A stretch of 64,000 nt of DNA, from the IMG/VR virus record IMGVR_UViG_3300012346_000469; one strand, written 5' to 3'. Source of the stretch: an uncultured virus (IMG/VR IMGVR_UViG_3300012346_000469) (lineage: Duplodnaviria > Heunggongvirae > Uroviricota > Caudoviricetes). The position numbers and the translations under genes are program-made. Of the stretch, positions 2,791 to 64,000 are shown in pieces. The stretch's first letter is position 1. Every line of letters begins with the position of its first letter. The notes beneath the pieces are model-generated. The model did no database searches, was not told the origin of the DNA, and was given only the letters and a program-made list of their open reading frames with translations.

Positions 2791-3272
2791 AACCAGCAAT
2801 CGAAAGGGTTCTTGATAAGGTTGTCCGCATCCCATTTTCTGGGTGCTGGATTTTTACAGGCGCATCCAACGAGTTTGGATATGGCATCGTTGGCGCGGGC
2901 GGTAGAGGCATGCCAAATGACAGGGCGCACCGCATAACCTACAGGCACTTCCATGGAGAAATCCCAAGCGGCATGTTTGTTTGCCATGAGTGCGATGTGC
3001 CGTCTTGTTGCAATCCAAGCCACCTCTTCCTTGGAACAAATCAAGACAACGTGGATGACATGGTGAAGAAGGGGCGCAACAGCAAGCCACCACGCAACCC
3101 TCACGTGATTGGCTCTGCGCATCCCGGATCAAAGTTTACAGAGGCTGAGGTTCTCCACATAAGGGAGCAAAACAAAATGGGTGTGAGTATGTACAGCATG
3201 GCAAAAAAGTATGGCGTATCTCAATCAACTATGCAAAGAATCGTGCGCGGAGCGAGGTACAAAAATGTCTGA
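2787..3272 (+). CDS. HNH homing endonuclease (HNH_3/Zn type) with C-terminal HTH
   Basis: GCWIFTG...GYG...AHR...VCHECDVPSCCNPSHLFLGTNQDN motif. Confidence 0.9.
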   Translation: MKPAIERVLDKVVRIPFSGCWIFTGASNEFGYGIVGAGGRGMPNDRAHRITYRHFHGEIPSGMFVCHECDVPSCCNPSHLFLGTNQDNVDDMVKKGRNSKPPRNPHVIGSAHPGSKFTEAEVLHIREQNKMGVSMYSMAKKYGVSQSTMQRIVRGARYKNV

Positions 3273-6077: not shown

Positions 6078-6213
6078 TGATCACGGTGGGCTTGGACGGC
6101 TCATCGTGCATCAAAGATGCTGTCTCAATTATTTGACGCGCATCTGTCTCGCAATCAGCCGCGAACAGCATCTCGAAGGTGATGCCGTTCTTGGCCAGTT
6201 TGACTTTGAACAT
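6049..6213 (-). CDS. hypothetical protein, 54 aa (MFKVKLAKNG...)
   Basis: read by hand; coupled to the upstream stop codon. Confidence 0.5.
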   Translation of the reverse strand: MFKVKLAKNGITFEMLFAADCETDARQIIETASLMHDEPSKPTVIISIQAVAGS

Positions 6214-6395
6214 CATGCCATCACCCTCTCAATCAAGACCTCGGCGGCCAGTTTGCACTGGGCCACCAAAGTCACGGATGCATCTCTCTCGAGACTACGG
6301 ACGAGCCGCATGGCCTGACTGATGCCAGCCTGGCTTGCGGCCTTGGTGCTGGCGATGTAGGCCAGCGTCAGAGGATGGTCGTGCTGCGGCATCAT
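6213..6395 (-). CDS. hypothetical protein
   Basis: 60-aa ORF in a tightly coupled leftward operon. Confidence 0.55.
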   Translation of the reverse strand: MMPQHDHPLTLAYIASTKAASQAGISQAMRLVRSLERDASVTLVAQCKLAAEVLIERVMA

Positions 6396-6565
6396 TGGTC
6401 TTCGTTCTCGCTCTTGAGAAATTCAATCATGCTGTTGCCCCGTTCAATGCAAACGTCCTCAACGTAGCCGGAGTCAACATCACCAAGCTCTTCTGGCGTC
6501 CAAACGATCACACAGTAGCCTTCGTCGCGCATAGCGTTCAATGCGTCTTGCCATTCTTTTTTCAT
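6392..6565 (-). CDS. hypothetical protein, 57 aa (MKKEWQDALNAMRDEGY...)
   Basis: AAGGAG SD; read by hand. Confidence 0.65.
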   Translation of the reverse strand: MKKEWQDALNAMRDEGYCVIVWTPEELGDVDSGYVEDVCIERGNSMIEFLKSENEDQ

Positions 6566-6811
6566 GTCATTCTCCTTGGATAAGTAAGTCGGGAACTACG
6601 TGATACTCGCCGCACTCGGGGCACAGCAAGCGGGTGGTGTCTTCGCCATCAACAATTTCAGTTTGCGATGCTGGCTCGTCCTTTGTCCATTCGCCATTGA
6701 TCATTTGAAGGGGCGTGTACTCGGTTTGGTCAACGCACAACAAAAGGCTTGCATTGCCGCACACAGCGCAGCATCCATTCACGGTTTCTTTTTTCATGTC
6801 ATTCTCCTTGG
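6554..6811. repeat. 26-bp direct repeat TTCTTTTTTCATGTCATTCTCCTTGG (6554-6579, 6786-6811)
   Basis: exact match; on the minus strand it contains SD, stop and start (MKKE). Confidence 0.9.
6567..6797 (-). CDS. Zn-ribbon hypothetical protein
   Basis: CAVC...CPEC; AAGGAG SD. Confidence 0.7.
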   Translation of the reverse strand: MKKETVNGCCAVCGNASLLLCVDQTEYTPLQMINGEWTKDEPASQTEIVDGEDTTRLLCPECGEYHVVPDLLIQGE

Positions 6812-7014
6812 GTTGGGTTCAAAAGTTTTTCACGCATGGCGTTCATCTGCTCCAGCACTGACTGGCGGGTGCCTTTCAAGCCGTACATCTGTCTCGCAAT
6901 CACGTATGCGGATGGGCTGCGCGATCGGCCCATACCCCTGATTTCAAGGGCCAGCATGGATCGCACCGCGAGAAATTGCGCGGCATCGATTTGGTTTCCG
7001 GTGAGTGTGGTCAT
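6799..7014 (-). CDS. hypothetical phage protein
   Basis: AGGAG SD; L.LEI.GM.RSR..SAY motif. Confidence 0.7.
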   Translation of the reverse strand: MTTLTGNQIDAAQFLAVRSMLALEIRGMGRSRSPSAYVIARQMYGLKGTRQSVLEQMNAMREKLLNPTQGE

Positions 7015-7173
7015 GGTTTTCTCCTAAAGTTTTGGCACATCTGTCTCGCAATCATCACCAAGGCGCTGGCGGCGCTGGCGGGTGCGCTGGCTGCTGGCGC
7101 TGGTGGTCGCGGATTTGCTGGCGCGTCCAGGGGGTCGGGCCAGTGGCTGGCGGGAATGGCCAGGGCTGCGGGG

Positions 7174-7335
7174 TCACTGCCTGGCCTCCTGTCGGCCTCG
7201 CTCGATTAAGGCGCGCGCTTCGGCTCGGTCGTCGATGCGTTCGGCCTCGATCATGCGGCGCAAAGTCTCGGCGGGGGTCTGGCCTCGCTCGTATCTGTAC
7301 CCGGCTTGAATGTATGCGGCTTCGGTGTGGGTCAT
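7174..7335 (-). CDS. hypothetical protein (MTHTEAAYIQAGYRYE...)
   Basis: AGGAG SD before the internal ATG. Confidence 0.65.
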   Translation of the reverse strand: MTHTEAAYIQAGYRYERGQTPAETLRRMIEAERIDDRAEARALIERGRQEARQ

Positions 7336-7514
7336 GCTGGCTGCTCCTGTTGGGTTAATCGGTCGGCCTCGGCTTCTAGGTCGGCGGCTTCTTCGTCGTG
7401 CTGGCGCATTGCTGCGGCGCTGTGGCGCAAATAATTCTGGCCTTCGGTGCGGTGCCATCTTGCGCGGCTTCTGAGCGCTGCGGCGCGTGTGGCGGGGCTT
7501 GGCTGGGTGTTCAT
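7332..7514 (-). CDS. hypothetical protein
   Basis: AGGAG SD; ATGA overlap. Confidence 0.55.
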   Translation of the reverse strand: MNTQPSPATRAAALRSRARWHRTEGQNYLRHSAAAMRQHDEEAADLEAEADRLTQQEQPA

Positions 7515-7584
7515 GCTTTGAGCTCCTGTTGTCGGGACAATTCCCGCTCATGCCATCGGTGTCCAATGGCATGGGCTGGCGCTG

Positions 7585-8262
7585 TCATGCTGCGGCGATT
7601 GGGATCACGCGGCGTGCCTTGTGGTCGGCTTGCTTGGCCTTGGTGCCGTGGGCTCGAAATCCGATAATTTGCCGGCGGTTGGCCTGTTGGCAAAGTCCGC
7701 ATAATGCGCACGTCATGTGCTCCACGGTCTGAGCGGGGCAAACTAGAACGGGGCGGCCTTCGGGCGTTGTGCTGTGGCGCGGCGTGTCCATTGGCACAAT
7801 GCAAACCACGGGGGCCCCAGTCGCGGCGAGTCGGTCGGCCTCTCCTGCATCGTCGGCGCTTAGGTTCACCGTAAAACCCCATTGTGTCGCGGCCTTGGCC
7901 CAATAGATCGCCTCGGGGCTCTTCTTGTGGGTGTACGTGAAACCCTTGCGGCCTCGGTTGGCTTTCACAATCTGGCCCAACTGGTAAGCGTCCACGTCTT
8001 CGCCTTGGCCTGGTAGATCGCCTGCGACATTGTGTCGCCATAATTGACCTTTCGGCATTCTGTTGAGGGCTTTTATCAGTCCGTCCAGGTCGGTGCCTCG
8101 CTCGTCCACCCTGTTCCAGTTCATGCGGGTGCAAAAATCCTCGGCGTAGCAGCTCGTTCTATAGTGTGTGCAGCTCGGGGGGCAACTGTCGCGGCTCGTG
8201 TAGGTCTGGGGAATCGGGCCGGTTTTGCGGTTGTTGCTGGCTTGGATGAAATGGTATTTCAT
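7585..8262 (-). CDS. Cys-rich gp88-like / radical-SAM-like putative Fe-S protein
   Basis: N.KTG, CPPSC..CYA, RHNVAGD, YTH, CPAQ..TC..CGLC motifs. Confidence 0.7.
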   Translation of the reverse strand: MKYHFIQASNNRKTGPIPQTYTSRDSCPPSCTHYRTSCYAEDFCTRMNWNRVDERGTDLDGLIKALNRMPKGQLWRHNVAGDLPGQGEDVDAYQLGQIVKANRGRKGFTYTHKKSPEAIYWAKAATQWGFTVNLSADDAGEADRLAATGAPVVCIVPMDTPRHSTTPEGRPVLVCPAQTVEHMTCALCGLCQQANRRQIIGFRAHGTKAKQADHKARRVIPIAAA

Positions 8263-8465
8263 GCGGTTTGCTCCTTGTGGGTGTTGAATGCGTCGATTAG
8301 GTCGAATGCGGCGCGGCGTCTGGCGTGCTTCATGTCTGGCCCTTCTCTGTCGTGCATGAGCATGGCGTAAGCGATGGCGACGGCCTCCTGTAGCGTTGGC
8401 GCGTCTTGTTCTTCTTGGTCTGGGTGCGGCGTGGCTGGGTTGGCGGTGAAGTGCTGGCGGGTCAT
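8259..8465 (-). CDS. hypothetical protein (MTRQHFTA...)
   Basis: coupled ATGA start inside ORF 8259..8543. Confidence 0.55.
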   Translation of the reverse strand: MTRQHFTANPATPHPDQEEQDAPTLQEAVAIAYAMLMHDREGPDMKHARRRAAFDLIDAFNTHKEQTA

Positions 8466-8677
8466 GGCTTGGCCCTTTGCAGCTCGTTTGCCAAGTCCTG
8501 GCCTCCGTTGCGGCCTATCCATCCGTGGCCGCTCCATCCCCATTGCGTTTTCTCGATGGTGATTTGATTCTCACCCCAAATGAGTTGAATCCATGTTTCA
8601 CCCTTGTTGGCGGCCTTTTTAATGGCGGCCTTCAATGTGGTGATGCTCGGCTTATTGGTGTAGTCAATCTGGATCAT
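8462..8677 (-). CDS. hypothetical protein
   Basis: AGGAG SD; WGENQI..G.GWIG motif. Confidence 0.7.
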   Translation of the reverse strand: MIQIDYTNKPSITTLKAAIKKAANKGETWIQLIWGENQITIEKTQWGWSGHGWIGRNGGQDLANELQRAKP

Positions 8678-8680
8678 GGC

Positions 8681-9028
8681 TTAGGCTCCTGTTCGTGCTT
8701 TGATGGTCATGCGGGTGGATTCTTTGCCCTGCTTTGTGTGGGCGCGGATTAGCTGGGCGCTCGGGTTAAAGCGCTGGGCGATGGTCTGCCAGTCGGTGAG
8801 GGCGCGGCCTGCCACCTGTGCGAAGCTGGCGCGGAAAATCTGCCCTTCGATGGTGGTGAGTCCGGCGTCTTCAAGCTCGGCGCGGATTTTGTCGGCCTCT
8901 TCTTTCATCGTTGCCATTGCTGCGGCGATTGCTCCGAGTCGGTCAACCTTGGCGGCCATGGCATCGGCGGCGCTTTGGCGTGGCTGCAGTGCGCTGAATG
9001 CGAGTGCTTGCAAGTCTTGGGTGTTCAT
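8681..9028 (-). CDS. hypothetical phage protein (coiled coil plus TDW motif)
   Basis: AGGAG SD; common phage early family. Confidence 0.7.
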   Translation of the reverse strand: MNTQDLQALAFSALQPRQSAADAMAAKVDRLGAIAAAMATMKEEADKIRAELEDAGLTTIEGQIFRASFAQVAGRALTDWQTIAQRFNPSAQLIRAHTKQGKESTRMTIKARTGA

Positions 9029-9042
9029 GGTGTGGGCTCCTG

Positions 9043-9249
9043 TTAGATGGTGCGGTAGACGGTGGCCAGGATTTGGCGGGCTTGGGTTTCGCTTAGATTT
9101 AAGTCAAGCATTTGCAGTCGGGCGGCGAAGTGCTGAATTGTCCTGGCTGCGGCGCTGCGGTTGTCGGGCGTATCTGGCGCGCCCTTCAATGGCTGGATTT
9201 CCTGCTTGAATGCTTCGATGCATTGGGGTTTGAGGATTGCGGCGTTCAT
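9043..9249 (-). CDS. hypothetical protein
   Basis: GGAG SD. Confidence 0.6.
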   Translation of the reverse strand: MNAAILKPQCIEAFKQEIQPLKGAPDTPDNRSAAARTIQHFAARLQMLDLNLSETQARQILATVYRTI

Positions 9250-9250
9250 G

Positions 9251-9448
9251 TCATGCGCTCCGGTTGGTGGTGGTCTTGGCGGCGATAAATTGGCCCTTGC
9301 GGGTGATGGTGGCGGCGCTGTAGCAACTGGCCCAGCTTAGGGCGGCGCGTAGCGTCAGCGTGTGGTGCTTGCGTGTGTGGCCGTGGCCTTGGATCGTGTA
9401 GCCGATACGCTGGGCGATTGCGTGGCGGATGGTGTCGGGGGTTGTCAT
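9251..9448 (-). CDS. hypothetical protein (MTTPDTIRHAIA...)
   Basis: AGGAG SD; ATGA overlap. Confidence 0.6.
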   Translation of the reverse strand: MTTPDTIRHAIAQRIGYTIQGHGHTRKHHTLTLRAALSWASCYSAATITRKGQFIAAKTTTNRSA

Positions 9449-9900
9449 GCTGTGGGCTCCTCGGTTGCGGTTGTGATGGCGTTGGCGATTGTGTTGGCGA
9501 AGACGTGCAAAGCCGTGAGGGCTATGATGCGGTCTTCTGGCCTGAGCGTGTGAATTAGGTTGTAGGCGTTGGCCGTTGCGTCTTCGATGGTGGCGCGCTC
9601 GGCGAATAGGTCGCACCTGATCTGTCGGGCAATGGCGCCAATCGTTGGCCGTTGCTCTTCGCTGGGGATGGCTTCAAGCATGATTGAGTTGAGCGCGTCG
9701 GCTTGGCGGTCTTCATAGACTGCGGCGACGCTCTTCAGCGTGGCCCAGGCTTGGCGGTCGGTGAGCGGCTTTCCATCGTGGCCGGTGAACAGTTCTAAAT
9801 AATCGCTGTCGCTCCAGCATTCGATCATCGTGTCGGCTCCCTTGTCATAATTGTCAAGGCACCAGTTCTTCATTGCCTGAATCGTTGCTTCGTGCTTCAT
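9445..9900 (-). CDS. hypothetical protein, first gene of the leftward early operon
   Basis: AGGAG SD; NY..G.D..IECW motif. Confidence 0.7.
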   Translation of the reverse strand: MKHEATIQAMKNWCLDNYDKGADTMIECWSDSDYLELFTGHDGKPLTDRQAWATLKSVAAVYEDRQADALNSIMLEAIPSEEQRPTIGAIARQIRCDLFAERATIEDATANAYNLIHTLRPEDRIIALTALHVFANTIANAITTATEEPTA

Positions 9901-9955
9901 GTCGTTTGCTCCTGTCTGTTAGGTTGTCTGCATCCTGTGTGATGCATTGCTGGCT

Positions 9956-53371: not shown

Positions 53372-53638
53372 CTAATCGATTGAATCTATAAGACGCTCAA
53401 TTGTGACGTTGAGCGCATCCAATTCGTCCATCTTTTTGATGGCCCACATGCGCTTTTGGCCATGCCACCCGAGCACTGGGCCCTGGTGGCATGACTTGCA
53501 CAGCGCAACGCACAGGTACTGCGATTCCTGCTTGATGTGGTGGGCATCACTGGGGCCGGCGGCGTCGCACACAGAGCATGGCAGCATCTTCACCATGCTG
53601 ATGTGCGCGCGCTGCTTGGCGGTCAGCTTGTTGTTCAC
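53372..53638 (-). CDS. Zn-binding HNH-like protein (Ref/DUF968-like)
   Basis: LPCSVC..AHHI..LCKSCHQG. Confidence 0.75.
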   Translation of the reverse strand: MNNKLTAKQRAHISMVKMLPCSVCDAAGPSDAHHIKQESQYLCVALCKSCHQGPVLGWHGQKRMWAIKKMDELDALNVTIERLIDSID

Positions 53639-53970
53639 TTGGACTTGCCCACGTCAAACCCAGCCTTGAGCCAGAACTTGCGCTCGCTGCGCAGCCGCTT
53701 GATTTCCGTGATGGCGGACAGCATCATGGATTTCAGCGGCGTGTCCTTTTGCTCGCGCATGTTGTCCTCAAGGATTGGAACCACGTCAATGCCTGAATCA
53801 GCCCCTTGGCGGGCTGCCCATGCCATGGTCTTGTCGATGGCCTCCTTGGCCGCTGTGGCGCGCTCCTGAAGGCCTTCGTACTGCTTGTGCAGCAACTGCT
53901 TCTCGATCGCCTTCAGCTGCACCTCTGCGCGCATCATGTGCGTGCTCCAGTCGTCCAGTTCAAAACTCAT
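53635..53970 (-). CDS. hypothetical protein
   Basis: coupled ORF in the operon. Confidence 0.65.
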   Translation of the reverse strand: MSFELDDWSTHMMRAEVQLKAIEKQLLHKQYEGLQERATAAKEAIDKTMAWAARQGADSGIDVVPILEDNMREQKDTPLKSMMLSAITEIKRLRSERKFWLKAGFDVGKSK

Positions 53971-54191
53971 ACTTCCCTCGCTTTCAGCATGGCGTCTGCC
54001 AATTTGTAGGCATCCTCAGCGATGCGTTCAAAGCTGTGACCAGCCATCATCTGCATCGCCTTGGCCGCAAAGTAGTCGCGCAGGGTCATGCCCGATTGCT
54101 CACTTACTGCCCAATCAAGACCACTGCCGTTGTCGATGTATTCAAACGGTGCGCGTGGAAACGCTGGACCGCCTGTGTTTGTGTTGCTCAT
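53967..54191 (-). CDS. hypothetical phage protein (GGPAFP..GMTLRDYFAAKAMQ family)
   Basis: well-known small phage family motif. Confidence 0.8.
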   Translation of the reverse strand: MSNTNTGGPAFPRAPFEYIDNGSGLDWAVSEQSGMTLRDYFAAKAMQMMAGHSFERIAEDAYKLADAMLKAREV

Positions 54192-54415
54192 ACTGCTCTC
54201 CGTTTCAACATTTCGTCCGCATGATCAAAGGCTGCCGCGTGAATGCTTGTGCGGCTGTCATCGTCAATGATGGCGCTCTTGTCGCCGTAATAGGCCAGCA
54301 GGCCCTGCAGCGCAAAGGCGGCAAAGAAGTCCTGCATCGTCAACTCCTGAATCGACACGGGGTCTTGCTTTGCAACCAATGCCTCCAGGCCTTCACCCTT
54401 TGGTTTTCTTGCCAT
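54188..54415 (-). CDS. hypothetical protein, paralogous to 53967..54191
   Basis: LTMQDFFAAFALQGLL..AD.ML. Confidence 0.7.
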   Translation of the reverse strand: MARKPKGEGLEALVAKQDPVSIQELTMQDFFAAFALQGLLAYYGDKSAIIDDDSRTSIHAAAFDHADEMLKRRAV

Positions 54416-54716
54416 TGCTTTTCCCCTTCACGTTTTGAGAAACAATCATTGGTGACAGCTGCTCTTCAAGGTAGTACGCAAAGCTCTGGCCTTCGATGCC
54501 AAGCACCTTGCACCACTGATCGTCATGCAGTGCGGCGATCACGTCGCGGATGGCCTTGTTGTAGCCGCCGTTGAACTCGTCGTCGCCGTCAACGATGATG
54601 GTGATGGCATCGCGCACCAGGGCCGAGGCCTTGCGGTTGCCGGCAGCCTCTTTCAGCTTGTTGTAAACGTGCTCTGGCAGATGCACGCTGTACGGGATTA
54701 AGCGCTTAGTTTCCAT
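54393..54716 (-). CDS. ribbon-helix-helix DNA-binding protein
   Basis: YSVHLP..VYNKL...ASALVRDAI pattern. Confidence 0.7.
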   Translation of the reverse strand: METKRLIPYSVHLPEHVYNKLKEAAGNRKASALVRDAITIIVDGDDEFNGGYNKAIRDVIAALHDDQWCKVLGIEGQSFAYYLEEQLSPMIVSQNVKGKSNGKKTKG

Positions 54717-55117
54717 GCTTGGAACTCCTGTTCAATGGCTGCAAGTTTTTTCGCAGCCTTGTGGTTTTCTTTCAGCTCCGTGCGCGACTGGATGTCCAGC
54801 TCTGTACGCAGCCATTCAACGACCGTTGACTCTTTCGCATCAAGCGTGTGGCCAACGGTCAGCAGGTATTCGGCAAACTGTTTGTCGCGGCAAAGAATGC
54901 CTGCTGTGCGGACTGCATCTCTGCTGTATTCCGCATCACGATTCATTGGTTTTTCTTCGCCGTTCAGTCTCACCATAACTACCTGATACCTTGCACCGAC
55001 AAAGTCACGCAGCAGTGACTCTGGGACTTCGTCGGGGTGTACGTTCAAAGTCAAGATGTAGCCAGTCTTGTCTTGCTTCATGGCTATCTTGACCGCTTCG
55101 TATTGCAGCGTCTGCAT
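54698..55117 (-). CDS. conserved hypothetical protein
   Basis: AGILC.D..F...L.IQSR.EL motif. Confidence 0.7.
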   Translation of the reverse strand: MQTLQYEAVKIAMKQDKTGYILTLNVHPDEVPESLLRDFVGARYQVVMVRLNGEEKPMNRDAEYSRDAVRTAGILCRDKQFAEYLLTVGHTLDAKESTVVEWLRTELDIQSRTELKENHKAAKKLAAIEQEFQAWKLSA

Positions 55118-55119
55118 GA

Positions 55120-55512
55120 TCAGAAGGGGATGTCGTCATCCATGTCGTCAAACGATTCCTGCTGCTTCTTGGGCGCTGGGCGCTGGCGCTCTTGTTGAGG
55201 CTCAGCATCCTTGCGACCACCTTGCAACGCAACGTCGTTCACACGCACATCCATGGACTTGCGCTTGTTGCCTTCTTTGTCAGTCCACTCGCGCTCGGAC
55301 ACGGTGCCTGTCACAGTGACAGCCTGGCCTTTGACAAGGTACTGGGACAGCGACTCTGCGCGCTTGCCGTACAGGCCGCAGTTCCACCAGATGGTGCCTT
55401 TGTCGCGGCCCATTGAATCGGCAACAGAGAAGTTGCAGATGTAGTCGCCGCTGTTGAGCTGCTTGAGCTCAGAGTCTTTGCCGAGCGTACCGGCGATAGT
55501 GATCGTATTAAT
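55120..55512 (-). CDS. ssb: single-stranded DNA-binding protein with ATT start codon
   Basis: (I)NTITIAGTLGKD..NFSVA..YLVKG..V.G..DDDIPF; AAGGAG 7 nt upstream of ATT. Confidence 0.85.
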   Translation of the reverse strand: MNTITIAGTLGKDSELKQLNSGDYICNFSVADSMGRDKGTIWWNCGLYGKRAESLSQYLVKGQAVTVTGTVSEREWTDKEGNKRKSMDVRVNDVALQGGRKDAEPQQERQRPAPKKQQESFDDMDDDIPF

Positions 55513-56137
55513 TTTGATTCTCCTTAAAAATTGAAAGTGCTTTTTCGAGCGGCCATTCTTGCAATCGTTGTATCAATGTTGAGACGCTGACGCCAAGATG
55601 CTTTGACCAGTCGGTTAAGCACATTTCCAGGCCGTTGAATTCCAAATATCTGTTGTTGCGTTTGTTTCTTGATTGCTTGTAATCGTTTGCCCATCTGCAA
55701 TTTTCTTTGCAGTAATCTCCATGTACATCAATTCTGTCTATCGACTTCATTCCGTCTGGTTTTTTGCCCATGTCCTCAAAAAAAGCCTCAAAAGAATCCA
55801 TCCACCTTTGGCACATTTTTATTCCACGACCTCCATAATCAGGAAAGTCTTTGTGGTTTGGGTTGGTGCATCTTGCTTTGATGTGCGCCCATGACCTGTA
55901 CTCTGTGGTTTTTGTCATCCCATGCTTACGATTTGAGTTGCCCTCTTTTTTTATGCATCCGCAAGACTTCGAGCCCCCAGAACGCAAGGCATTTAGCCTT
56001 ACGTCTGTTTGCACTCCGCAATCACAAATGCAAGCCCACAAAACATGTTTTCTGCTTGGGCAGATTTCATGTCCATTGGGGTAAAGGGCGGTGAGTTTGC
56101 CAAACTTCATTCCAGCGATGTTGAGTTTTGCTACCAT
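55508..56137 (-). CDS. free-standing HNH homing endonuclease
   Basis: FGKLT..W.C.CDCG..SKSCGC..YGGRGI..SIDRID..GDY...NCRWA; AT-rich. Confidence 0.9.
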   Translation of the reverse strand: MVAKLNIAGMKFGKLTALYPNGHEICPSRKHVLWACICDCGVQTDVRLNALRSGGSKSCGCIKKEGNSNRKHGMTKTTEYRSWAHIKARCTNPNHKDFPDYGGRGIKMCQRWMDSFEAFFEDMGKKPDGMKSIDRIDVHGDYCKENCRWANDYKQSRNKRNNRYLEFNGLEMCLTDWSKHLGVSVSTLIQRLQEWPLEKALSIFKENQN

Positions 56138-56168
56138 GATAGATTATGAACAAGTTGTTCATGCAATA

Positions 56169-56192
56169 TTAGCATACTGTGATGACGTTCAT
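56169..56192 (-). pseudogene. orphaned original ssb 5' end (MNVITVC*)
   Basis: AAGGAG SD and ATGA coupling to erf; resembles the SSB N-terminus. Confidence 0.6.
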
Positions 56193-56902
56193 GCTTGCTC
56201 CTTGAATTTGTTGCGTGCTGTTTTGAATTCTTCCATGAGGGCGTCGTAAGCAGAGCTGCCTGGCTCCGCCTTCATGCGGTCGTAGATGTTTTTGTTGTTG
56301 CGGAAGATGGCCATCACATCAGCTTCTGTGGCGGCTTGCTCGAGCCCCAGCTTGGTTGCCTCCATTACGATGTCTGCCCAGTCCGTGAACTCACCTTCTG
56401 GCTCAATCGAAACCTTCAGCTGCCATGGTCCTTCTTTGCCTTCAATCTTGGCTGGCGGCTTGGCTGATGGCTCGGCCTGCTTCACTGGCTTGGATGCCGA
56501 ACGCGGTGCTGGCTTGACTGGCTCTTCGTAACCGGTGCTGGCGTCCAGGATGTCGTGCTCAACAATCTCCATGGCGGTCATCCACAGGTAGCGGCGCTGG
56601 TAGGTTTCCACGGCACCCAGGTTCTGGATGGGGTGCGTGCCCTTCAGGTTTGCTTCGGCCATGGGGCTGCTGATCGTGATCATGGTGCCGTCTTCGACAT
56701 CGGTGATGGCGAGCTCAGCATAGTCCTTTGTGTACGAGACAACGCCGCACAAACCGATCCGGTTGAAGATCGATTGGATGACGGGCAGGAAGTCGCCCAG
56801 CTCGAAATAGCTGTAGCCTGCGAACTTGTTCAGTCCAGACTTTTTCAGCTGCGTGCCCTGCAATTCAATGCGGGCTTCCATCAGTTTTTTATGAACGCTC
56901 AT
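56189..56902 (-). CDS. ERF-family ssDNA annealing protein
   Basis: KSG.NKF..Y.YFEL.D...IQNLGA..TY.RRY motif. Confidence 0.85.
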   Translation of the reverse strand: MSVHKKLMEARIELQGTQLKKSGLNKFAGYSYFELGDFLPVIQSIFNRIGLCGVVSYTKDYAELAITDVEDGTMITISSPMAEANLKGTHPIQNLGAVETYQRRYLWMTAMEIVEHDILDASTGYEEPVKPAPRSASKPVKQAEPSAKPPAKIEGKEGPWQLKVSIEPEGEFTDWADIVMEATKLGLEQAATEADVMAIFRNNKNIYDRMKAEPGSSAYDALMEEFKTARNKFKEQA

Positions 56903-57099
56903 TTTGCGATTCCTTCATCACGGTTCTTTTTGAAATCGTAGTCGTTACGATATTCGGTTGGGGGTGTCCAGCCATGCTTGCGCCATGTTTGCTGGACGTT
57001 GGAGCCTTTCTTGAAAACAAAAAAGGGATCATCCAATGATGGCACCTTTGGGGTCGACGCCACTTCAACGATTGCAAATTTTGCTTCACGCTTTTTCAT
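56899..57099 (-). CDS. hypothetical protein (VQQTWRKHGWTPP motif)
   Basis: GAGG SD; internal ATG. Confidence 0.65.
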   Translation of the reverse strand: MKKREAKFAIVEVASTPKVPSLDDPFFVFKKGSNVQQTWRKHGWTPPTEYRNDYDFKKNRDEGIAK

Positions 57100-57475
57100 C
57101 TGGCACCTCGTCAGTGATTCGTAAAACTTCAATTGTCTTGCCGTCTTTACCATGGCACGTTGTGTAGGTTTTCCTTCCCCAGACGGTGGAAAGATAGCTG
57201 CACACACCAGAGCGAATATCTTCCGCTTCGTAGTCACCAATTTTGACGATCTGCACAGAGCCAACAGCGGCCTTCAGGTCAATCTGCGAGCCGTAAAACT
57301 CACGCAGCTCGCCATACGGAAATCTGTTTGGAGCCCTGCGCTTTCTTTGCTTTGGAGTGACCACTTCAAGTTCTCCGTATTCGTTGCCGTCTGGGTCGAT
57401 GATCTTGAACTTGCAGCCAATGCCTTCAATGAATTTGATGGAGCGGGTCAACTCCTTCAGTTGAATTTCTTTCAT
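57086..57475 (-). CDS. hypothetical protein (MKEIQLKEL...)
   Basis: AAAGGAG SD. Confidence 0.75.
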   Translation of the reverse strand: MKEIQLKELTRSIKFIEGIGCKFKIIDPDGNEYGELEVVTPKQRKRRAPNRFPYGELREFYGSQIDLKAAVGSVQIVKIGDYEAEDIRSGVCSYLSTVWGRKTYTTCHGKDGKTIEVLRITDEVPDEKA

Positions 57476-57492
57476 GGTGTTTCTCCTTTGGT

Positions 57493-57660
57493 TTAGAACC
57501 AACCGAACCAGATTCCGGTTCCGTGAATCCATGCGATTGGGAACACAATGGCTCCGGCAATCAAGAATCCCCACGAAGCCGTTTTCAGGCATACAACGAT
57601 GTGCGTGATCCATGAAAAGATCACCCAGATGGCCAGGCCAATTGGAATTAAGCCGTTCAT
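57493..57660 (-). CDS. 55-aa membrane protein (MNGLIPIGL...WITHIVVC...HGTGIWFGWF)
   Basis: read by hand; coupled start; hydrophobic. Confidence 0.65.
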   Translation of the reverse strand: MNGLIPIGLAIWVIFSWITHIVVCLKTASWGFLIAGAIVFPIAWIHGTGIWFGWF

Positions 57661-57866
57661 ACTTCCATCTCCCCTTGGTTTGTTTCGCCATAGGTTTCCA
57701 CCTTGGTGCCATTGCTCAGTGCTTCGACCAGATCATCTTGCGATGCGACCTTGACGCTGAATGCAGACTTGGCCACATGGGTGATGGCTTGTGATGCGAC
57801 AGAGGCTTTTACGAGGCGGCTGCCTGTTGGGCCGTTGACGAGATAGATGCGTGTTGCTGTTGCCAT
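57657..57866 (-). CDS. hypothetical protein (RIYLV..RLVKA..SQA..HVA)
   Basis: AAGGA SD. Confidence 0.75.
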   Translation of the reverse strand: MATATRIYLVNGPTGSRLVKASVASQAITHVAKSAFSVKVASQDDLVEALSNGTKVETYGETNQGEMEV

Positions 57867-57876
57867 GATGATTTCC

Positions 57877-58680
57877 TTATTTAACGTGGATGAAAGGGGT
57901 GACGCCACCGGCGTTGGTAGTCGGCAATTTGCCGTCCCATTTTTCGATGGCTTTGAGTTGGACGTAGTCGGAACCGCCTTGTGCAGAAATCGCTGAAGCA
58001 CGCAGTCGAATGGCGTCGGCTTCACCTTGCGCTTCAACTCGTTTTCGATCGGCTTCTGCTCGGGCAAGCTCAACTTCTTTTTGCTTGGCTGAGATTTGAA
58101 AGTTTCGGTTTGCCGATTCCTTGATTGCCTGCTCAAGTGCTGGGTCGGTTACAAGGTTGCGGACGTTGGCGCTGCGAACAAAGAACATACCCTTGCCAGC
58201 GGATTCATCGAGGTCGGCTTGCAAAGACTTCACGATGTCCGCAGAGATGCTCACGCGCTCGGTGTGTACGGTTTCAGAACCATACTTGGCGACTGCGTTG
58301 TAAACGGCTTCACGGGCCTGGCGTGTGACGTAGCCATTGCCAATCCGCACACCGTCTTCGCCCTTGAACTCAACGGCATCGCCTGGCCATTTGGTCATGA
58401 TCTCTGGAGCCTTGGATGGATCGATTTGGTAAAAGATGTCCACGTCCAGGTCGGCCAGCGTGATCTTGTCTTTGGTCTGGGGCTTCATGTCATCAAGCGA
58501 CAGGCGTAGCTCTTTGGCGGACACTTCGGTCACGCGCTTGAACAGGCTGAAGTACACGCCTGGCGGCATGGTTTCTTTTTTGACCTGGCCCAGTGTTGCC
58601 TCAACGCCGACGTTGCCGGTATCGATCTGGGTACATGCAGTCAACGATGCGACTGCAATTGCTGAAATGATTCTTTTCAT
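57877..58680 (-). CDS. SPFH/Band 7 domain lipoprotein
   Basis: lipobox LTAC; IDTGNVGV, TKD and AIEKWDGKLP motifs. Confidence 0.88.
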   Translation of the reverse strand: MKRIISAIAVASLTACTQIDTGNVGVEATLGQVKKETMPPGVYFSLFKRVTEVSAKELRLSLDDMKPQTKDKITLADLDVDIFYQIDPSKAPEIMTKWPGDAVEFKGEDGVRIGNGYVTRQAREAVYNAVAKYGSETVHTERVSISADIVKSLQADLDESAGKGMFFVRSANVRNLVTDPALEQAIKESANRNFQISAKQKEVELARAEADRKRVEAQGEADAIRLRASAISAQGGSDYVQLKAIEKWDGKLPTTNAGGVTPFIHVK

Positions 58681-58684
58681 GGTT

Positions 58685-58876
58685 TTACAAAAGTTGGGTT
58701 GATGGAACATTGGCGGCAACCACTACGAGTAGAAGCAAGATGCCGATGAAAAAGCCAATCCGGAAAGCGTGCTGTGTGATGGACTTGATGGCCACCCTTC
58801 TTGCCTTTGGATCAGCCAAAGTCCAGACTGCGTAAACAGCCACGACTAAGACAACGAGTAAAAGCAAGTGCCTCAT
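58685..58876 (-). CDS. two-TM membrane protein
   Basis: hydrophobic ORF coupled to the upstream stop. Confidence 0.6.
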   Translation of the reverse strand: MRHLLLLVVLVVAVYAVWTLADPKARRVAIKSITQHAFRIGFFIGILLLLVVVAANVPSTQLL

Positions 58877-59100
58877 GACCAGGTGACAGCTTTTACTGCC
58901 CACATCTGGGCGGTCTGGGCTTCCGTGATTGCAATGCTCAGCATGCGCTTTGCTTCGGGTGATGCGTCGCTCAACAGGCGGTGCTCATTCAGAAGGTCAA
59001 CGACTTCAGCAAACTTGCGCTTGATGAGGTCAACGTCTTCGCGTCCGCCTGGGTTAAAGCTAACGCCGCAGGCCTTTTGGCCAAATGTCAATTCATTCAT
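58873..59100 (-). CDS. Acb2/Tad1-like helical-hairpin protein (candidate signal sponge)
   Basis: FNP...V..IK......R..SIAIT..QTAQMWAVKA motif. Confidence 0.65.
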   Translation of the reverse strand: MNELTFGQKACGVSFNPGGREDVDLIKRKFAEVVDLLNEHRLLSDASPEAKRMLSIAITEAQTAQMWAVKAVTWS

Positions 59101-59996
59101 GGTGCTTCCTTGGTTTTGAGATAGGCTTGGTATTGCGTGCAGAACGGTGCCACTTGGCAAAAGCCAGAGCAGCGCGTCCGATCGCCTTCCCTTACCTCGA
59201 TTGAAAAGCTCTCACCTTTCTTGGCCTTGGCCACAGATTCAGCAAGAGCAGCTTCGGCATTGGCGCGCACTTCATGCACGCTCTTTGCGCGAACGTTGCC
59301 GTCTTTTTTGACGGCGTAATAGGTTGGCTTTTCCCACATCTCTTCAGCCGTGCATTCAGGCATTTCACCGCCGGCATGGACTGCGAAGTAGGCATCGTTG
59401 TGCAGCGACAGACGGCCCTCGACGTAGGCCTGACGCTTCTCAAAAGTCCACAGAGGGATGTCAATGACATGGATGGGTGACTTGGGGTAGCCTTCCTTTG
59501 TCAGTGCATCACGGCGCGACCAGTCACGCACGATGGCCACGATGTTCAAAGCCTTGATCGGCACGCCTTTTTTACGCTCTATCAGCCAGGCGTAGACGTT
59601 CAGCTGGTTGTGCCAATCATCTTTCTCGTTCATCACGGCCCATGCGCCAGTGACTTTGTAATCGCTGATGATCACGCCGTCTTCATAGACCTCTTGCAGG
59701 TCGATGGCGCCGCTGATGCGCCAGCCGTGGTGCTCGGTAAAGATGCGCTCTTCAACGATGTGGTGATCGCTCTTGCCGTGCTGCAAGATTTCGTGGACGG
59801 CCGAGCCAAACAGTGACCAGACCATCTCGCTTGCGTCTTGCTCGAGCTCATCCCAGTGCTTGGCCTTGAGCTGCACGATGCGCGGGCTGTTCAGGATTTC
59901 CGTGGCAGAAATCTGTGAGTCGCCTTTGGTGTAGGTGGGCCGCTTGATCACGTTGATGAACGTGTCGGGCAGCTCAAACTTGTTGGTCAGCTTCAC
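59097..59996 (-). CDS. PD-(D/E)XK (RecB/Cas4-like) exonuclease
   Basis: GSAVH, SGAID, DYKVT, QLN.Y, C..FC.V..FC motifs; GTG start with AGGAG SD. Confidence 0.85.
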   Translation of the reverse strand: MKLTNKFELPDTFINVIKRPTYTKGDSQISATEILNSPRIVQLKAKHWDELEQDASEMVWSLFGSAVHEILQHGKSDHHIVEERIFTEHHGWRISGAIDLQEVYEDGVIISDYKVTGAWAVMNEKDDWHNQLNVYAWLIERKKGVPIKALNIVAIVRDWSRRDALTKEGYPKSPIHVIDIPLWTFEKRQAYVEGRLSLHNDAYFAVHAGGEMPECTAEEMWEKPTYYAVKKDGNVRAKSVHEVRANAEAALAESVAKAKKGESFSIEVREGDRTRCSGFCQVAPFCTQYQAYLKTKEAP

Positions 59997-60244
59997 TGCA
60001 TCTTCTCCTTGCTCAGGTGAATCGTGTGCTTGTGAATCTCCATGAAGATACCGATGATGTCGTGCATCGTCATGTCGGCAGACAGGCCAAGCGTTGACAA
60101 AATGATGCAAGCCGCTGCAATGGCCTCGCGCGGGTTTCCATCTGAATCTTCCAAAATTCCGGCGCCGTGTTTATTGGCGATCTGGGCAGCATGCTTTAGG
60201 ATGAGCATGCCCGCTTCGCGCTGCTCTGGGGTGAGTTCTTTCAT
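59993..60244 (-). CDS. hypothetical protein, first gene of the leftward operon
   Basis: AGGA SD. Confidence 0.65.
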   Translation of the reverse strand: MKELTPEQREAGMLILKHAAQIANKHGAGILEDSDGNPREAIAAACIILSTLGLSADMTMHDIIGIFMEIHKHTIHLSKEKMQ

Positions 60245-60274
60245 GTGTTGATCCTAACTGTTGGGTGGGACTCT

Positions 60275-60303
60275 AATGTAACAGGTATAAACCAACAACA
60301 CAA
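60275..60303 (-). promoter_or_regulatory. candidate leftward promoter
   Basis: TTGTGT-17 bp-TACATT with extended -10 TG. Confidence 0.45.
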
Positions 60304-60349
60304 CACCTGCTACGATGAATGCAATATATTTTTTTCATAGGTGTTTTCC

Positions 60350-60634
60350 ATGAGAAGAGCAGCCAGGCGTGACACCAACGAGCCAGAGATCATCAAGGCC
60401 ATGCGCGACATGGGCGCCTACGTCAAGGTCATCAACGACGAGGGCTTGTTCGACCTGCTGGTGAGCTTCCGCGGGGAGACGCTGCTGATCGAGGTCAAGG
60501 ACGGGGCCAAGCCGCCATCGGCCAGACGGCTCACGGACGCAGAGCAGAAGTTCCACGACGAATGGCCAGGATCAGACCTGTACATCGTCAACAGTGTTGA
60601 AGAGGCTGTTGCTCTGTTGAAAACTTGCGGTTAA
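60350..60634 (+). CDS. VRR-NUC-like PD-(D/E)XK nuclease (resolvase-like)
   Basis: RD.NE..I....G..DLLV...LIEVK..LT..E..F...W. Confidence 0.85.
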   Translation: MRRAARRDTNEPEIIKAMRDMGAYVKVINDEGLFDLLVSFRGETLLIEVKDGAKPPSARRLTDAEQKFHDEWPGSDLYIVNSVEEAVALLKTCG

Positions 60635-60637
60635 GAT
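60609..60637 (+). promoter_or_regulatory. sigma70-like promoter for the sRNA/tRNA region
   Basis: TTGCTC-17 bp-TAAGAT. Confidence 0.6.
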
Positions 60638-60643
60638 TGAGGC

Positions 60644-60728
60644 GCGGCATAGGGGTATGTCGTGTTTCATGAGTGTTTCTCCTTTAGGTTGGGATTGCCC
60701 CTCTGCTTAGCGGCAGAGGGGTTTTCTT
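60644..60728 (+). ncRNA. candidate trans-acting sRNA with anti-SD/anti-AUG seed
   Basis: promoter, 5' hairpin, TTTCATGAGTGTTTCTCCTTTAGGTT seed, terminator. Confidence 0.55.
60697..60728 (+). terminator. intrinsic terminator
   Basis: CCCCTCTGC/GCAGAGGGG stem plus TTTTCTT. Confidence 0.75.
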
Positions 60729-60735
60729 CTGAAGG

Positions 60736-61025
60736 GCCAACACGCATGAGCCTTTCTGCGGAGCTCTCAAGCCGGCTCTTGGGCGCAGTGATGCAGACGG
60801 GTTCAGTCGTGTTGGCAAGAGTCGGCCGAAAGGCAAACAGTTTTGGTCTGTTGACTCACAGTGCGAGTCGAGAAGTCAACCGGCATCTGGGGCCGTTCGC
60901 ACACCAGAACCATCACTTTGCCCAGGGGTCGTTCCCCGCAGCGCGAAGTCCTGGAGTGGCCAGGTGGGCAAAGTGATGGTCAAGCGCAACACTTGCGTCG
61001 GACTGGGGGTTCTCGGTCGCCATCA
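60736..61025 (+). ncRNA. cluster of structured non-coding elements upstream of the tRNAs
   Basis: 9-bp and 16-bp closing stems, GAAA tetraloop, three-way junctions. Confidence 0.5.
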
Positions 61026-61033
61026 ATCATTGT

Positions 61034-61112
61034 CGCGGGATAGAGGAGCCCAGCCGTCCTCGCCAGTTTCATACGCTGGAGATCGCAGGTGCGAATCCTG
61101 CTCCCGCAACCA
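61034..61112 (+). tRNA. tRNA-Met(CAT), initiator-like (C1xA72) with non-canonical features
   Basis: cloverleaf, CAT anticodon, encoded CCA. Confidence 0.85.
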
Positions 61113-61168
61113 ATTCATGTACAATCCGGCCCATCATGAAAACGTCTTTCCTTCCGCGACCGACCAAG

Positions 61169-61244
61169 CTGTGTGTAGCTCAGCTGGTAGAGCGCGCGCT
61201 TTGGGAGCGTGAGGTCGCAGGTTCGATCCCTGTCACACAGACCA
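61169..61244 (+). tRNA. tRNA-Pro(TGG)
   Basis: canonical cloverleaf, encoded CCA. Confidence 0.95.
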
Positions 61245-61274
61245 ATTTCACAACGACACGAAACTGATACCCAT

Positions 61275-61350
61275 TCTGGGGTAGCACAGTGGTAGTTGCA
61301 TCTGGCTGTTAACCAGAATGTCGTTGGTTCGATCCCAACCCCCAGAGCCA
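61275..61350 (+). tRNA. tRNA-Asn(GTT)
   Basis: cloverleaf, G73, encoded CCA. Confidence 0.95.
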
Positions 61351-61355
61351 AATAA

Positions 61356-61432
61356 GCCCTCGTAGCTCAGTCGGTAGAGCACCTGTTTTGTACTCAGGAG
61401 GCCGGGCGTTCGATTCGACCCCGAGGGCACCA
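61356..61432 (+). tRNA. tRNA-Thr(TGT) with U31-U39 mismatch and a bulged T-stem
   Basis: GCCCTCG/CGAGGGC acceptor stem, encoded CCA. Confidence 0.85.
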
Positions 61433-61441
61433 AAATATCTC

Positions 61442-61471
61442 TTGCACGTCCACCAACGTCTTTGCTATACT
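61442..61471 (+). promoter_or_regulatory. sigma70-like promoter
   Basis: TTGCAC-18 bp-TATACT with extended -10 TG. Confidence 0.75.
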
Positions 61472-61475
61472 GGCC

Positions 61476-61597
61476 TCGTTGCCGTAGGAAGCGACGAAAA
61501 TTGAGGCCGTTTACACATGCGTTCCGCCTTACCTGATGACCAGTTGAAGAGTCATGAGGTAAGGTTCCTACCGGACGCAGTTGTAAGCGGCCTTTTT
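61476..61597 (+). ncRNA. C4/CI-like antisense RNA with its upstream target hairpin
   Basis: loop GTAGGAA (61484-61490) is complementary to bulge TTCCTAC (61565-61571) in a long nested stem ending in a T-run. Confidence 0.65.
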
Positions 61598-61602
61598 CAT
61601 TT

Positions 61603-61975
61603 CTACGTCAGCTCTGCGCTGATCCTTTTGGTGATACGAACGTTCTTGTTCAGCGCGAGAGCCATAAGAACTATCGACGTGGCAAGCGCGGGTGGGGATA
61701 GCGCTGATTGTTGGGTAAACCGCCAGAACGGAACCAGGTCGAGAGATTGGGGTGATCCGGGGCAACGGCAGCAATCAGGTCGAGCTTGGTCAGTGCGCTA
61801 AGAAGGGGTCTCACAATGGGCCTAAATGTCTGACAGCTGCGGCGGAGCATTGAGAGATGACCGCAGCCAAAAAGCGACGGAGCGACCGATGGGCGATTCC
61901 AGCATTTTGATCTTCAGCCAACCTCGCGTTTTGTGAGCTAGGGGTGGGCTGTGTCCGATTGCTCTGTCACTCGGT
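61603..61975 (+). ncRNA. candidate large structured RNA
   Basis: multiple 7-10-bp nested stems and one pseudoknot; no credible ORF. Confidence 0.45.
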
Positions 61976-62003
61976 CCGGGCGATAACCAGTGTGGAGATG
62001 GTG

Positions 62004-62629: not shown

Positions 62630-62800
62630 TTACTCGGGGTCGTTCCAGATGTCCGGCGTCGCCCAGGCGAATAGGTGCTGCCACATGCTGATGCAGTCGC
62701 CACACTTCTCGTACATGAACTTGGCCAGCTCCAGTTGGTTTTTACGCTCCTGGAGCCACCACTCATGCGCCGTGTATGGTGGGTACTTGCGCATGCTCAT
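62630..62800 (-). CDS. 56-aa hypothetical protein (MSMRKYPPYTAHEWWLQE...)
   Basis: read by hand; ends just before the terminator. Confidence 0.5.
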   Translation of the reverse strand: MSMRKYPPYTAHEWWLQERKNQLELAKFMYEKCGDCISMWQHLFAWATPDIWNDPE

Positions 62801-63224
62801 CGCCCAGCTTCAATACGGCGTAGCCTGTTAACGTCTTCATCAGCATCAGTCCGTGGAAGCTCAGGTCTTCTGCTATTTGCTTCCATTCCGGCTCCCGAGC
62901 AGGTGCTGCGAGTTCTGCTTTCAACAAAGCGATGGTCATGGCTTGGTCTGCCGCAATTGCTTCCCAGTCCTCCACTGGCGAACTGGAAGTTTTTTCTTGG
63001 TTCGCCAATTGCTCCCTTTTAAGTTCGCCATAGTTCCACACGGCTTCGCTCAGCCAGCCTTCTGTTTTGGTCAGCCTTGCTTCCAAGTCCTTTGCCGCTT
63101 CTTGAGCTTGGAACAACGCGGACTCGAGCGTGCCGATGCGCTTGTTAATCCAGTCGAGTTCGAGCTTGGTCCACACCCATCCACCAACGAAGTCGGGATG
63201 ATCTTCTGGTTTGATATTGCTCAT
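62763..63224 (-). CDS. hypothetical phage protein (WEAIAADQAMTIALL motif)
   Basis: AAGGAG SD. Confidence 0.7.
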   Translation of the reverse strand: MSNIKPEDHPDFVGGWVWTKLELDWINKRIGTLESALFQAQEAAKDLEARLTKTEGWLSEAVWNYGELKREQLANQEKTSSSPVEDWEAIAADQAMTIALLKAELAAPAREPEWKQIAEDLSFHGLMLMKTLTGYAVLKLGDEHAQVPTIHGA

Positions 63225-63952
63225 GTGTTCTTCTCCTTGATTGCGGCCTCAATGGCACGGGCAAATGCCAAGGCCAAACGCTCGTCTTGTGGTCGCAATG
63301 TTTGGTTCGTTGCCGTTATGTATGCCGTGTAAATCTCTCCGTTCGTCAGTGGCACGGCTGGCTGTTTTGCAGGTTCTGGGTATGCGTAGAGAGGCAATGC
63401 ACGATGCTCGTTGGTAAAGTCTTCCGGGTTGTCGGTCACGCAGACAGACGTTCCATCAAGCGTGTAAACCATCCACGCCACAGGATTTTGCTTCGCTTGC
63501 TCGGCCAGCAACTCCGTCCTCCCAGTGCAGTACCCATTTAGGTAGTTTGTCTTTTGCTTCTCAGCCGCATCAGTGGCAGCATCTCGACGGCCCTTCGCCA
63601 TGCCGTCCATGTAGCCACGCTGGTATGCGGACTCGGACTGTTGCTGTGCGGGTGGGGTGGTGTCAAAATTGTTGCGCGGGTCAAGTCCGCCATCAGAAAC
63701 GATGTCGCTGTATTGCGCCACCTTCTCCTGCATAGGTGCTGGTTTGTAGATGGCCTCAAGGGGGATCGGTTTGGCCATCAGTTTTTCGCCATCCCACCAG
63801 ACTTTTGACACCTGTGTTCCGCCTGCTGGCTCATAGTCCAACCCCAACTCACGGGCATTCTCAGACATCTTGTTGAGGGCGCTTTCCACGGCCTGTTTGC
63901 GCATCTTGGACTCACGCTCGATGCGGTTGAACTCTTCGTCTTCGTCAGTCAT
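63221..63952 (-). CDS. mosaic hypothetical phage protein (PVAWM..PLY family)
   Basis: GGAGG SD; modular motifs typical of phage accessory genes. Confidence 0.7.
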   Translation of the reverse strand: MTDEDEEFNRIERESKMRKQAVESALNKMSENARELGLDYEPAGGTQVSKVWWDGEKLMAKPIPLEAIYKPAPMQEKVAQYSDIVSDGGLDPRNNFDTTPPAQQQSESAYQRGYMDGMAKGRRDAATDAAEKQKTNYLNGYCTGRTELLAEQAKQNPVAWMVYTLDGTSVCVTDNPEDFTNEHRALPLYAYPEPAKQPAVPLTNGEIYTAYITATNQTLRPQDERLALAFARAIEAAIKEKNT

Positions 63953-64000
63953 TCGTCGTCCTCCATTTCGGTAATTTGATCGTTCAAGATTTGCATCTTG

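Follow-up and report, generated by a model that had tools for sequence, protein, structure and literature searches.

Few phage-encoded regulatory RNAs have been described (bioRxiv 10.1101/2024.10.31.621285). Among those closest to the RNA considered here, c4 of phages P1/P7 acts in trans around the ribosome-binding site of an mRNA from its own phage and blocks translation; in the portion of the account available to us, it has a single target (ant), serves temperate-phage immunity and carries its binding sequences in loops (PMC12197685). The lambda RNAs PreS and OOP are likewise phage-encoded and base-pairing; OOP is antisense to cII-O mRNA, whose decay it promotes, and PreS differs from the RNA proposed here in acting mainly on host genes (bioRxiv 10.1101/2024.10.31.621285). 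The streptococcal csRNAs are similar in layout, with a 5' hairpin, unpaired anti-SD and anti-AUG sequence, and a terminator (PMC3091779).

The locus described here lies in a 64,000-nucleotide stretch of DNA from an uncultured virus (IMGVR_UViG_3300012346_000469), which was analysed as a whole and is called the window. Its predicted small RNA (hereafter the sRNA) holds anti-SD and anti-AUG sequence between two hairpins in the csRNA style, short members of its family being without the 5' hairpin. The family is apparently real, widespread in a large group of uncultured phages and uncatalogued; we found no description of it in the literature or in six supplements of PMC10690425, whose remaining supplement files may include it.

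The window is the bulk of a 60-70-kb podovirus-like phage; its plus strand encodes the terminase, the portal and the major head protein, and helicase and primase are found at the left end. Among cultured records, the nearest to its capsid protein are MinM2/Pag-Yong1/Pra-JY27 (73%) and HTVC023P/027P (65%). Leftward genes occupy two blocks described below, cluster A and operon B, and a third at 62630-64000; their gene content suggests that these blocks are early/middle. Three 65,014-bp records, OQ594354, OL906435 and PP438419, have identical match statistics and three different cyanobacterial host labels, which may be unreliable.

A promoter, seed and terminator at the end of a nuclease gene

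The elements of the unit are as follows.

60350..60634, plus strand: 94-aa nuclease-like gene that contains the promoter; its only matches, all weak, are to endonuclease, Hjc and VRR-NUC
60609..60614, plus strand: -35 box TTGCTC, within the 3'-terminal coding part of the nuclease gene
60632..60637, plus strand: -10 box TAAGAT, which shares bases with the TAA stop codon of gene 60350..60634
60643..60729, plus strand: predicted sRNA, ~85 nt, with a putative +1 at 60643-60645
60643..60664, plus strand: 5' hairpin, 9 bp, GGGG loop
60660..60696, plus strand: seed (anti-codon-2/anti-AUG, anti-spacer, anti-SD, anti-5'-leader)
60668-60670, 60677-60685 and 60686-60694, plus strand: seed segments CAT (anti-AUG), anti-SD and anti-5'-leader
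60697..60729, plus strand: one-directional intrinsic terminator (hairpin 60697-60722 with U-tract)
60572..60670, minus strand: 32-codon ORF, not a gene

The nuclease-like protein matches PHROG 93 at E=3e-4, every Pfam match lying under the curated cut-offs, and within the nuclease mRNA the sRNA sequence doubles as 3' UTR. The preliminary description had proposed a promoter TTGCTC-17-TAAGAT followed by a seed at 60665-60690 and a terminator. The promoter is of an ordinary sigma70 type. Both boxes and the 17-nt spacer are at the claimed positions, the seed lies where it was placed, and the hairpin at 60697-60722 with its U-tract was the top-listed hairpin in our scan. A consensus promoter scanner did not list the sRNA promoter, which is supported by its conservation in relatives. 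The second T of the -35 box is a silent third codon position and is T in 20/23 V/I/L codons against a 14% background, a test whose p-value is overstated because the promoter sequences are related; the encoded residue is variously V, I or L. The last T of the -10 box is invariant (24/24 distinct promoters), and TA...T occurs at the nuclease stop in 110/136 close loci versus 5/95 distant ones. The sRNA promoter thus appears, from these comparisons, to be under silent-site selection.

Relatives of the nuclease were drawn from viral, genome and metagenome collections (309 loci matched, 231 non-redundant). A terminator lies 3' of the nuclease in 132/136 loci at >=54% nuclease identity versus 5/95 below this value. 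An anti-SD precedes it in 100/136 close loci, an undercount because the script at times halted at the 5' hairpin; under a stricter parse an anti-SD is found in 106/115 units, the other 9/115 being without a clear one. The terminator hairpin is followed by a U-tract in 114/115 units and preceded by an A-tract in 0/115, and the RNAs of these 115 units measure 50-102 nt (median 70). Pair counting in alignment A1 gave 76% paired in register, but a +1 slide scored equally high because the terminators fall in different sequence families, and the figure is not counted as evidence. The conserved promoter-seed-terminator unit is very probably an RNA gene, as judged from sequence conservation.

Each genome appears to carry one such unit: this was found for the window and 3/5 further genomes, the scan having missed the known unit in the other two. 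A scan that failed to recover two known members detected no such unit in 14 kb of MinM2 or 50 kb of DSL-LC04. When viral contigs were searched with a loose pattern, most of the matches were ordinary gene starts, and a terminator was present in 5/80 flanked loci, 1 of which was a known member. A similar -10/anti-start/terminator arrangement occurs at about 3001-3070 in two other viral contigs, L102 and L144, by pattern match.

The region 60640-60735 folds with z = -5.6. The claimed 5' hairpin with an open seed is obtained if +1 is 60643, but at +1 60644-60645 an alternative fold partly hides the seed; the unpaired fraction of the seed is 0.57 versus 0.53 in shuffles, the window value depending on the +1. 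The 5' hairpin is unconserved in sequence and missing in the shortest relatives. Two elements absent from the window RNA recur in the 5' part of the RNA elsewhere, namely a CAGTTGY motif (33/115 units; L299, L285, L292, L280 and others) and a CCAGANGGCTGG hairpin (25/115 units); CAGTTGY was considered as a mirror of AUG-CAA starts and rejected, as it fits one genome only. With its U-rich stretch, hairpin and U-tail, the sRNA could presumably make use of Hfq.

Further structured elements lie downstream. Right after the terminator, 60736-60818 forms a structured RNA with a long closing stem, in which the 2x2 internal loop (CACG-CA-UG ... CA-GC-CGUG) is fixed whereas the interior is very variable; it has no Rfam match. 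Stem RNAs of this type lie 3' of the sRNA in 33/115 loci, where the U-runs are shorter and a new promoter occurs in 1/33, which suggests read-through into the stem RNA. A second long-stem element at 60908-60980 has a multibranch interior and resembles 60736-60818 in outline. Four tRNA genes follow at 61034-61432: Met (CAT, low Rfam score), Pro, Asn and Thr. At 61442-61600, a promoter-like TTGCAC...TATACT precedes a two-domain structured RNA of ~125 nt with a terminal U-tract (-61 kcal/mol) and no Rfam match; among relatives, L006 and L019 for example have similar units 3' of the sRNA.

The seed and the leftward gene starts

The following leftward features bear on the seed.

6100..9900, minus strand: cluster A, small leftward genes
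53372..60244, minus strand: operon B (PD-(D/E)XK exonuclease, Acb2/Tad1-type protein, SPFH protein, Erf, HNH, SSB)
60275..60303, minus strand: putative leftward promoter of operon B, read from sequence as TTGTGT-17-TACATT, divergent from the sRNA
59993..60244, minus strand: first operon-B gene
60230..60267, minus strand: start of this first gene together with its 5' leader, showing the tightest covariation with the seed
57466..57500, minus strand: start region of the 129-aa gene 57086..57475, which belongs to no family; -35.7 hybrid, -18.8 net
9888..9927, minus strand: start region of gene 9445..9900, first of cluster A, -36.0 hybrid, -13.6 net, ranked second

In most relatives, too, a -10 box for operon B can be seen at this offset. 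A CAGGT...ACCTG inverted repeat, a possible operator, lies between the divergent promoters at 60281-60310, and related motifs recur in relatives.

Energies were computed with our own simple loop-limited duplex model and automated start calls, the starts in the window being curated. All six seed matches of the preliminary description were confirmed at their coordinates, but that list omits a strong match at start 9900 and the first leftward gene 60244. The match at 57470-57493 scored 40, against a best of 30 and a mean of 22.5 in 100 shuffled windows, and is thus beyond random chance; among start regions it is unexceptional. The start of gene 57086..57475, whose position is backed by homologs, is the best predicted target in the window. 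A pairing dedicated to this gene did not hold up, the gene having been found in 3 loci only, one of them this phage, and foreign seeds binding equally (8/11 other phages' seeds gave -29 to -32.7 kcal/mol at the window's best start, versus -31.7 for its own seed).

The top 12 net-energy targets in the window comprise 10 leftward genes (36/87 genes are leftward; p=0.002) and 1 structural gene, and include the cluster A starts 9028, 8262, 7014 and 6797 and the start of the Acb2/Tad1-type gene. Compared as whole distributions, late and other genes of the window differ with p=0.03 without accessibility and 0.095 with it. The nuclease's own start is bound weakly by the seed. Over the first operon-B gene's start and leader, the seed gives -23.0 kcal/mol in the window and -26.5 in the near-identical L001. 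The Shine-Dalgarno sequence of this gene, at 60251, is GGAU in the window and GGAG in the near-identical L001 and L242, either a strain variant or an assembly error. The hairpin-domain protein of Acb2/Tad1 type at 58873-59100, an anti-defence candidate, scores over the Pfam cut-off.

Leftward and structural genes differ in their start regions: AUGAA is found at 92/239 (38%) leftward starts versus 10/131 (8%) structural starts, and the commonest SD-AUG spacer is 8 nt in the former and 6 nt in the latter. Leftward starts account for 56/78 top-six matches, where 37 were expected. A possible, still tentative reading is that the clade encodes temporal class in its start regions, decoded by one antisense RNA; under the proposed start code, early genes would have a long spacer, CAUGAA and an AC-rich leader, and structural genes a short spacer and AUGGC. 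If this is true, a whole early regulon could be shut off by RNA only, and invading relatives might be cross-silenced too.

Seed and targets covary across relatives in the leftward classes, modestly (effects of 1-3 kcal/mol). The class test, for which 27 genomes were loaded (one without a parsed seed) with up to 12 best-SD starts per class, showed an own-genome advantage at cluster A (a top-3 residual of -1.4 kcal/mol, p=0.001, 21 genomes; -1.7, p=0.003 with representatives) and at operon B (-1.6 kcal/mol, p=0.0002, 26 genomes; -1.9, p<0.001 with representatives). Structural genes had no such advantage (+0.3, p=0.80, 25 genomes; range +0.3 to +0.75), a result that speaks against an explanation by genome composition. 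The claim that the seed is antisense to the phage's own early (leftward) genes is borne out for the class, with own-genome advantages at p<=0.003. Unstratified own-versus-cross tests, mostly of close genomes, gave p=0.11 (15 genomes) and p=0.45 (12 genomes), and the whole-distribution comparison of late and other genes was not significant in any of 13 genomes; start 57475 is absent from the gene calls behind the window's row in the 15-genome and 13-genome tests.

The leader of the first operon-B gene, ~400 nt away and divergent, has a residual of -2.5 kcal/mol over the 84/115 loci where it could be placed. Among 20 lineage representatives, the first gene gives -2.2 (p=0.002), operon-B genes 2-5 lie at -0.4 to -1.1 (p 0.08-0.30), and +0.4 is obtained for the start of the nuclease itself; at 7-9 clusters the significance of the first gene weakens to a median p of about 0.03 (maximum 0.18). 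The AUG/spacer half and the leader half of the seed each covary with this gene, and the untranscribed promoter region, used as a control, does not. Shared-word excess is 1.2-1.3 for gene 1 and 0.1-0.6 for genes 2-5, and gene 1 ranks first of five in 16/57 loci and first or second in 35/57. The first operon-B gene differs between phages, so the target would be a position, not a protein.

A proposed translational brake and its rivals

We consider it probable that the sRNA is a repressor that works in trans on many targets, directed at the leftward genes of its own phage as a class. On the evidence of conservation, host sigma70 RNA polymerase would initiate within the last part of the nuclease gene and halt at the terminator, yielding a 50-100-nt RNA. 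The U/G-rich seed would pair in trans across the 5' leader, Shine-Dalgarno sequence, spacer and AUG of leftward mRNAs, hindering 30S loading and so blocking initiation. Its targets would be the small genes of cluster A and the recombination/anti-defence operon B, the first operon-B cistron being the most consistently matched, and structural genes would escape through their different type of start. As the RNA accumulates, it might act as a delayed brake on early/middle protein synthesis, the least supported step of this scheme. The sRNA and operon-B promoters both look sigma70-type, which suggests a delayed negative loop and not a late-specific switch. By throttling two early blocks, with their recombination set and Acb2/Tad1-type anti-defence gene, such an RNA would add a translational layer to phage timing, and the more than 100 natural seed/target variants make direct reporter testing feasible.

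The sRNA could instead be real and act mainly on host mRNAs (AGGAG...AUGAA), its fit to the phage arising from shared adaptation to the host's style of start. The seed is indeed a generic mirror of start regions that binds the best sites of foreign genomes about equally, and lambda PreS offers a precedent for action mainly on host genes (bioRxiv 10.1101/2024.10.31.621285). However, the structural genes share the same host and do not covary, and the seed follows the 5' leader of one positional target; we regard this reading as unlikely.

The main rival for the covariation itself is homogenisation of direct repeats at the DNA level, in which the seed would be a repeat of leftward starts (a relic start whose similarity is maintained by recombination or gene conversion), its pairing without function, and the promoter and terminator would work for the nuclease gene and for the ncRNA/tRNA cluster downstream. 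Relative to all leftward starts the seed has the orientation of a direct repeat, and relative to structural starts the inverted one, an arrangement that could alone yield the leftward/structural contrast, and the shorter U-runs ahead of the stem RNA also fit. Wobble evidence is divided: G-U-compatible differences number 94 versus 48 at the first five operon-B genes, but the bias is gone for genome-wide top-5 matches (96 versus 93). Against this rival, the seed persists among nucleases with as little as 54% identity, and its place is precisely that between a promoter under selection and a terminator; compared with the antisense of real starts, seeds are richer in U and poorer in C/A; and the ATG is frequently lost while the anti-SD is retained. 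We find this rival rather improbable.

With the same mechanism as the trans-acting repression that we favour and a different purpose, the RNA might be an immunity or exclusion factor that silences the early genes of a superinfecting relative or keeps a resident phage in a carrier state. Seeds do cross-bind the starts of relatives, the promoter is of a constitutive type and c4 RNA confers P1/P7 heteroimmunity (PMC12197685), but an integrase is absent among the 52 window proteins scanned (a subset of the ORFs), and this purpose seems quite improbable. Very improbable is the reading of the seed as a genuine ribosome-binding site for a small peptide encoded on the minus strand, which has a perfect SD-AUG in the window but is largely excluded by sequence conservation, neither ATG, frame nor length being conserved (ATG lost in 45/106 units; 4-119 aa; three frames, 23/21/17), or as a 3' UTR element folding onto the nuclease's own start, which is weakly bound and does not covary. 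The 32-aa minus-strand ORF that the preliminary description named as a possible refutation of its sRNA is thus not upheld as a gene.

Comparison with known systems

At the gathering threshold, Rfam matched only four tRNAs in the window and only tRNAs at 20 related loci, with no credible match for the sRNA even at E<=10; the csRNA family gave no match for the sRNA, and the C4-type model gave none at E<=10 in 60200-62000. No antirepressor (ant) was found among the predicted target genes scanned, several of which belong to no family. The c4 RNA is processed by RNase P.

As in the sRNA family, CAU is retained in most, not all, csRNAs; unlike the sRNA, csRNAs are chromosomal, CiaR-driven and directed at host targets in Firmicutes, and covariation with a phage gene block is not part of their description in the portion of the source available to us (PMC3091779). 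The sRNA is unlike c4 in carrying a seed that mirrors, as a linear sequence, start regions of a class. Action on many targets would contrast with the self-directed phage RNAs compared here, which have one target each as far as the available accounts go. On its predicted features, the sRNA would work like c4 and is built like the csRNAs, and it matches neither family.
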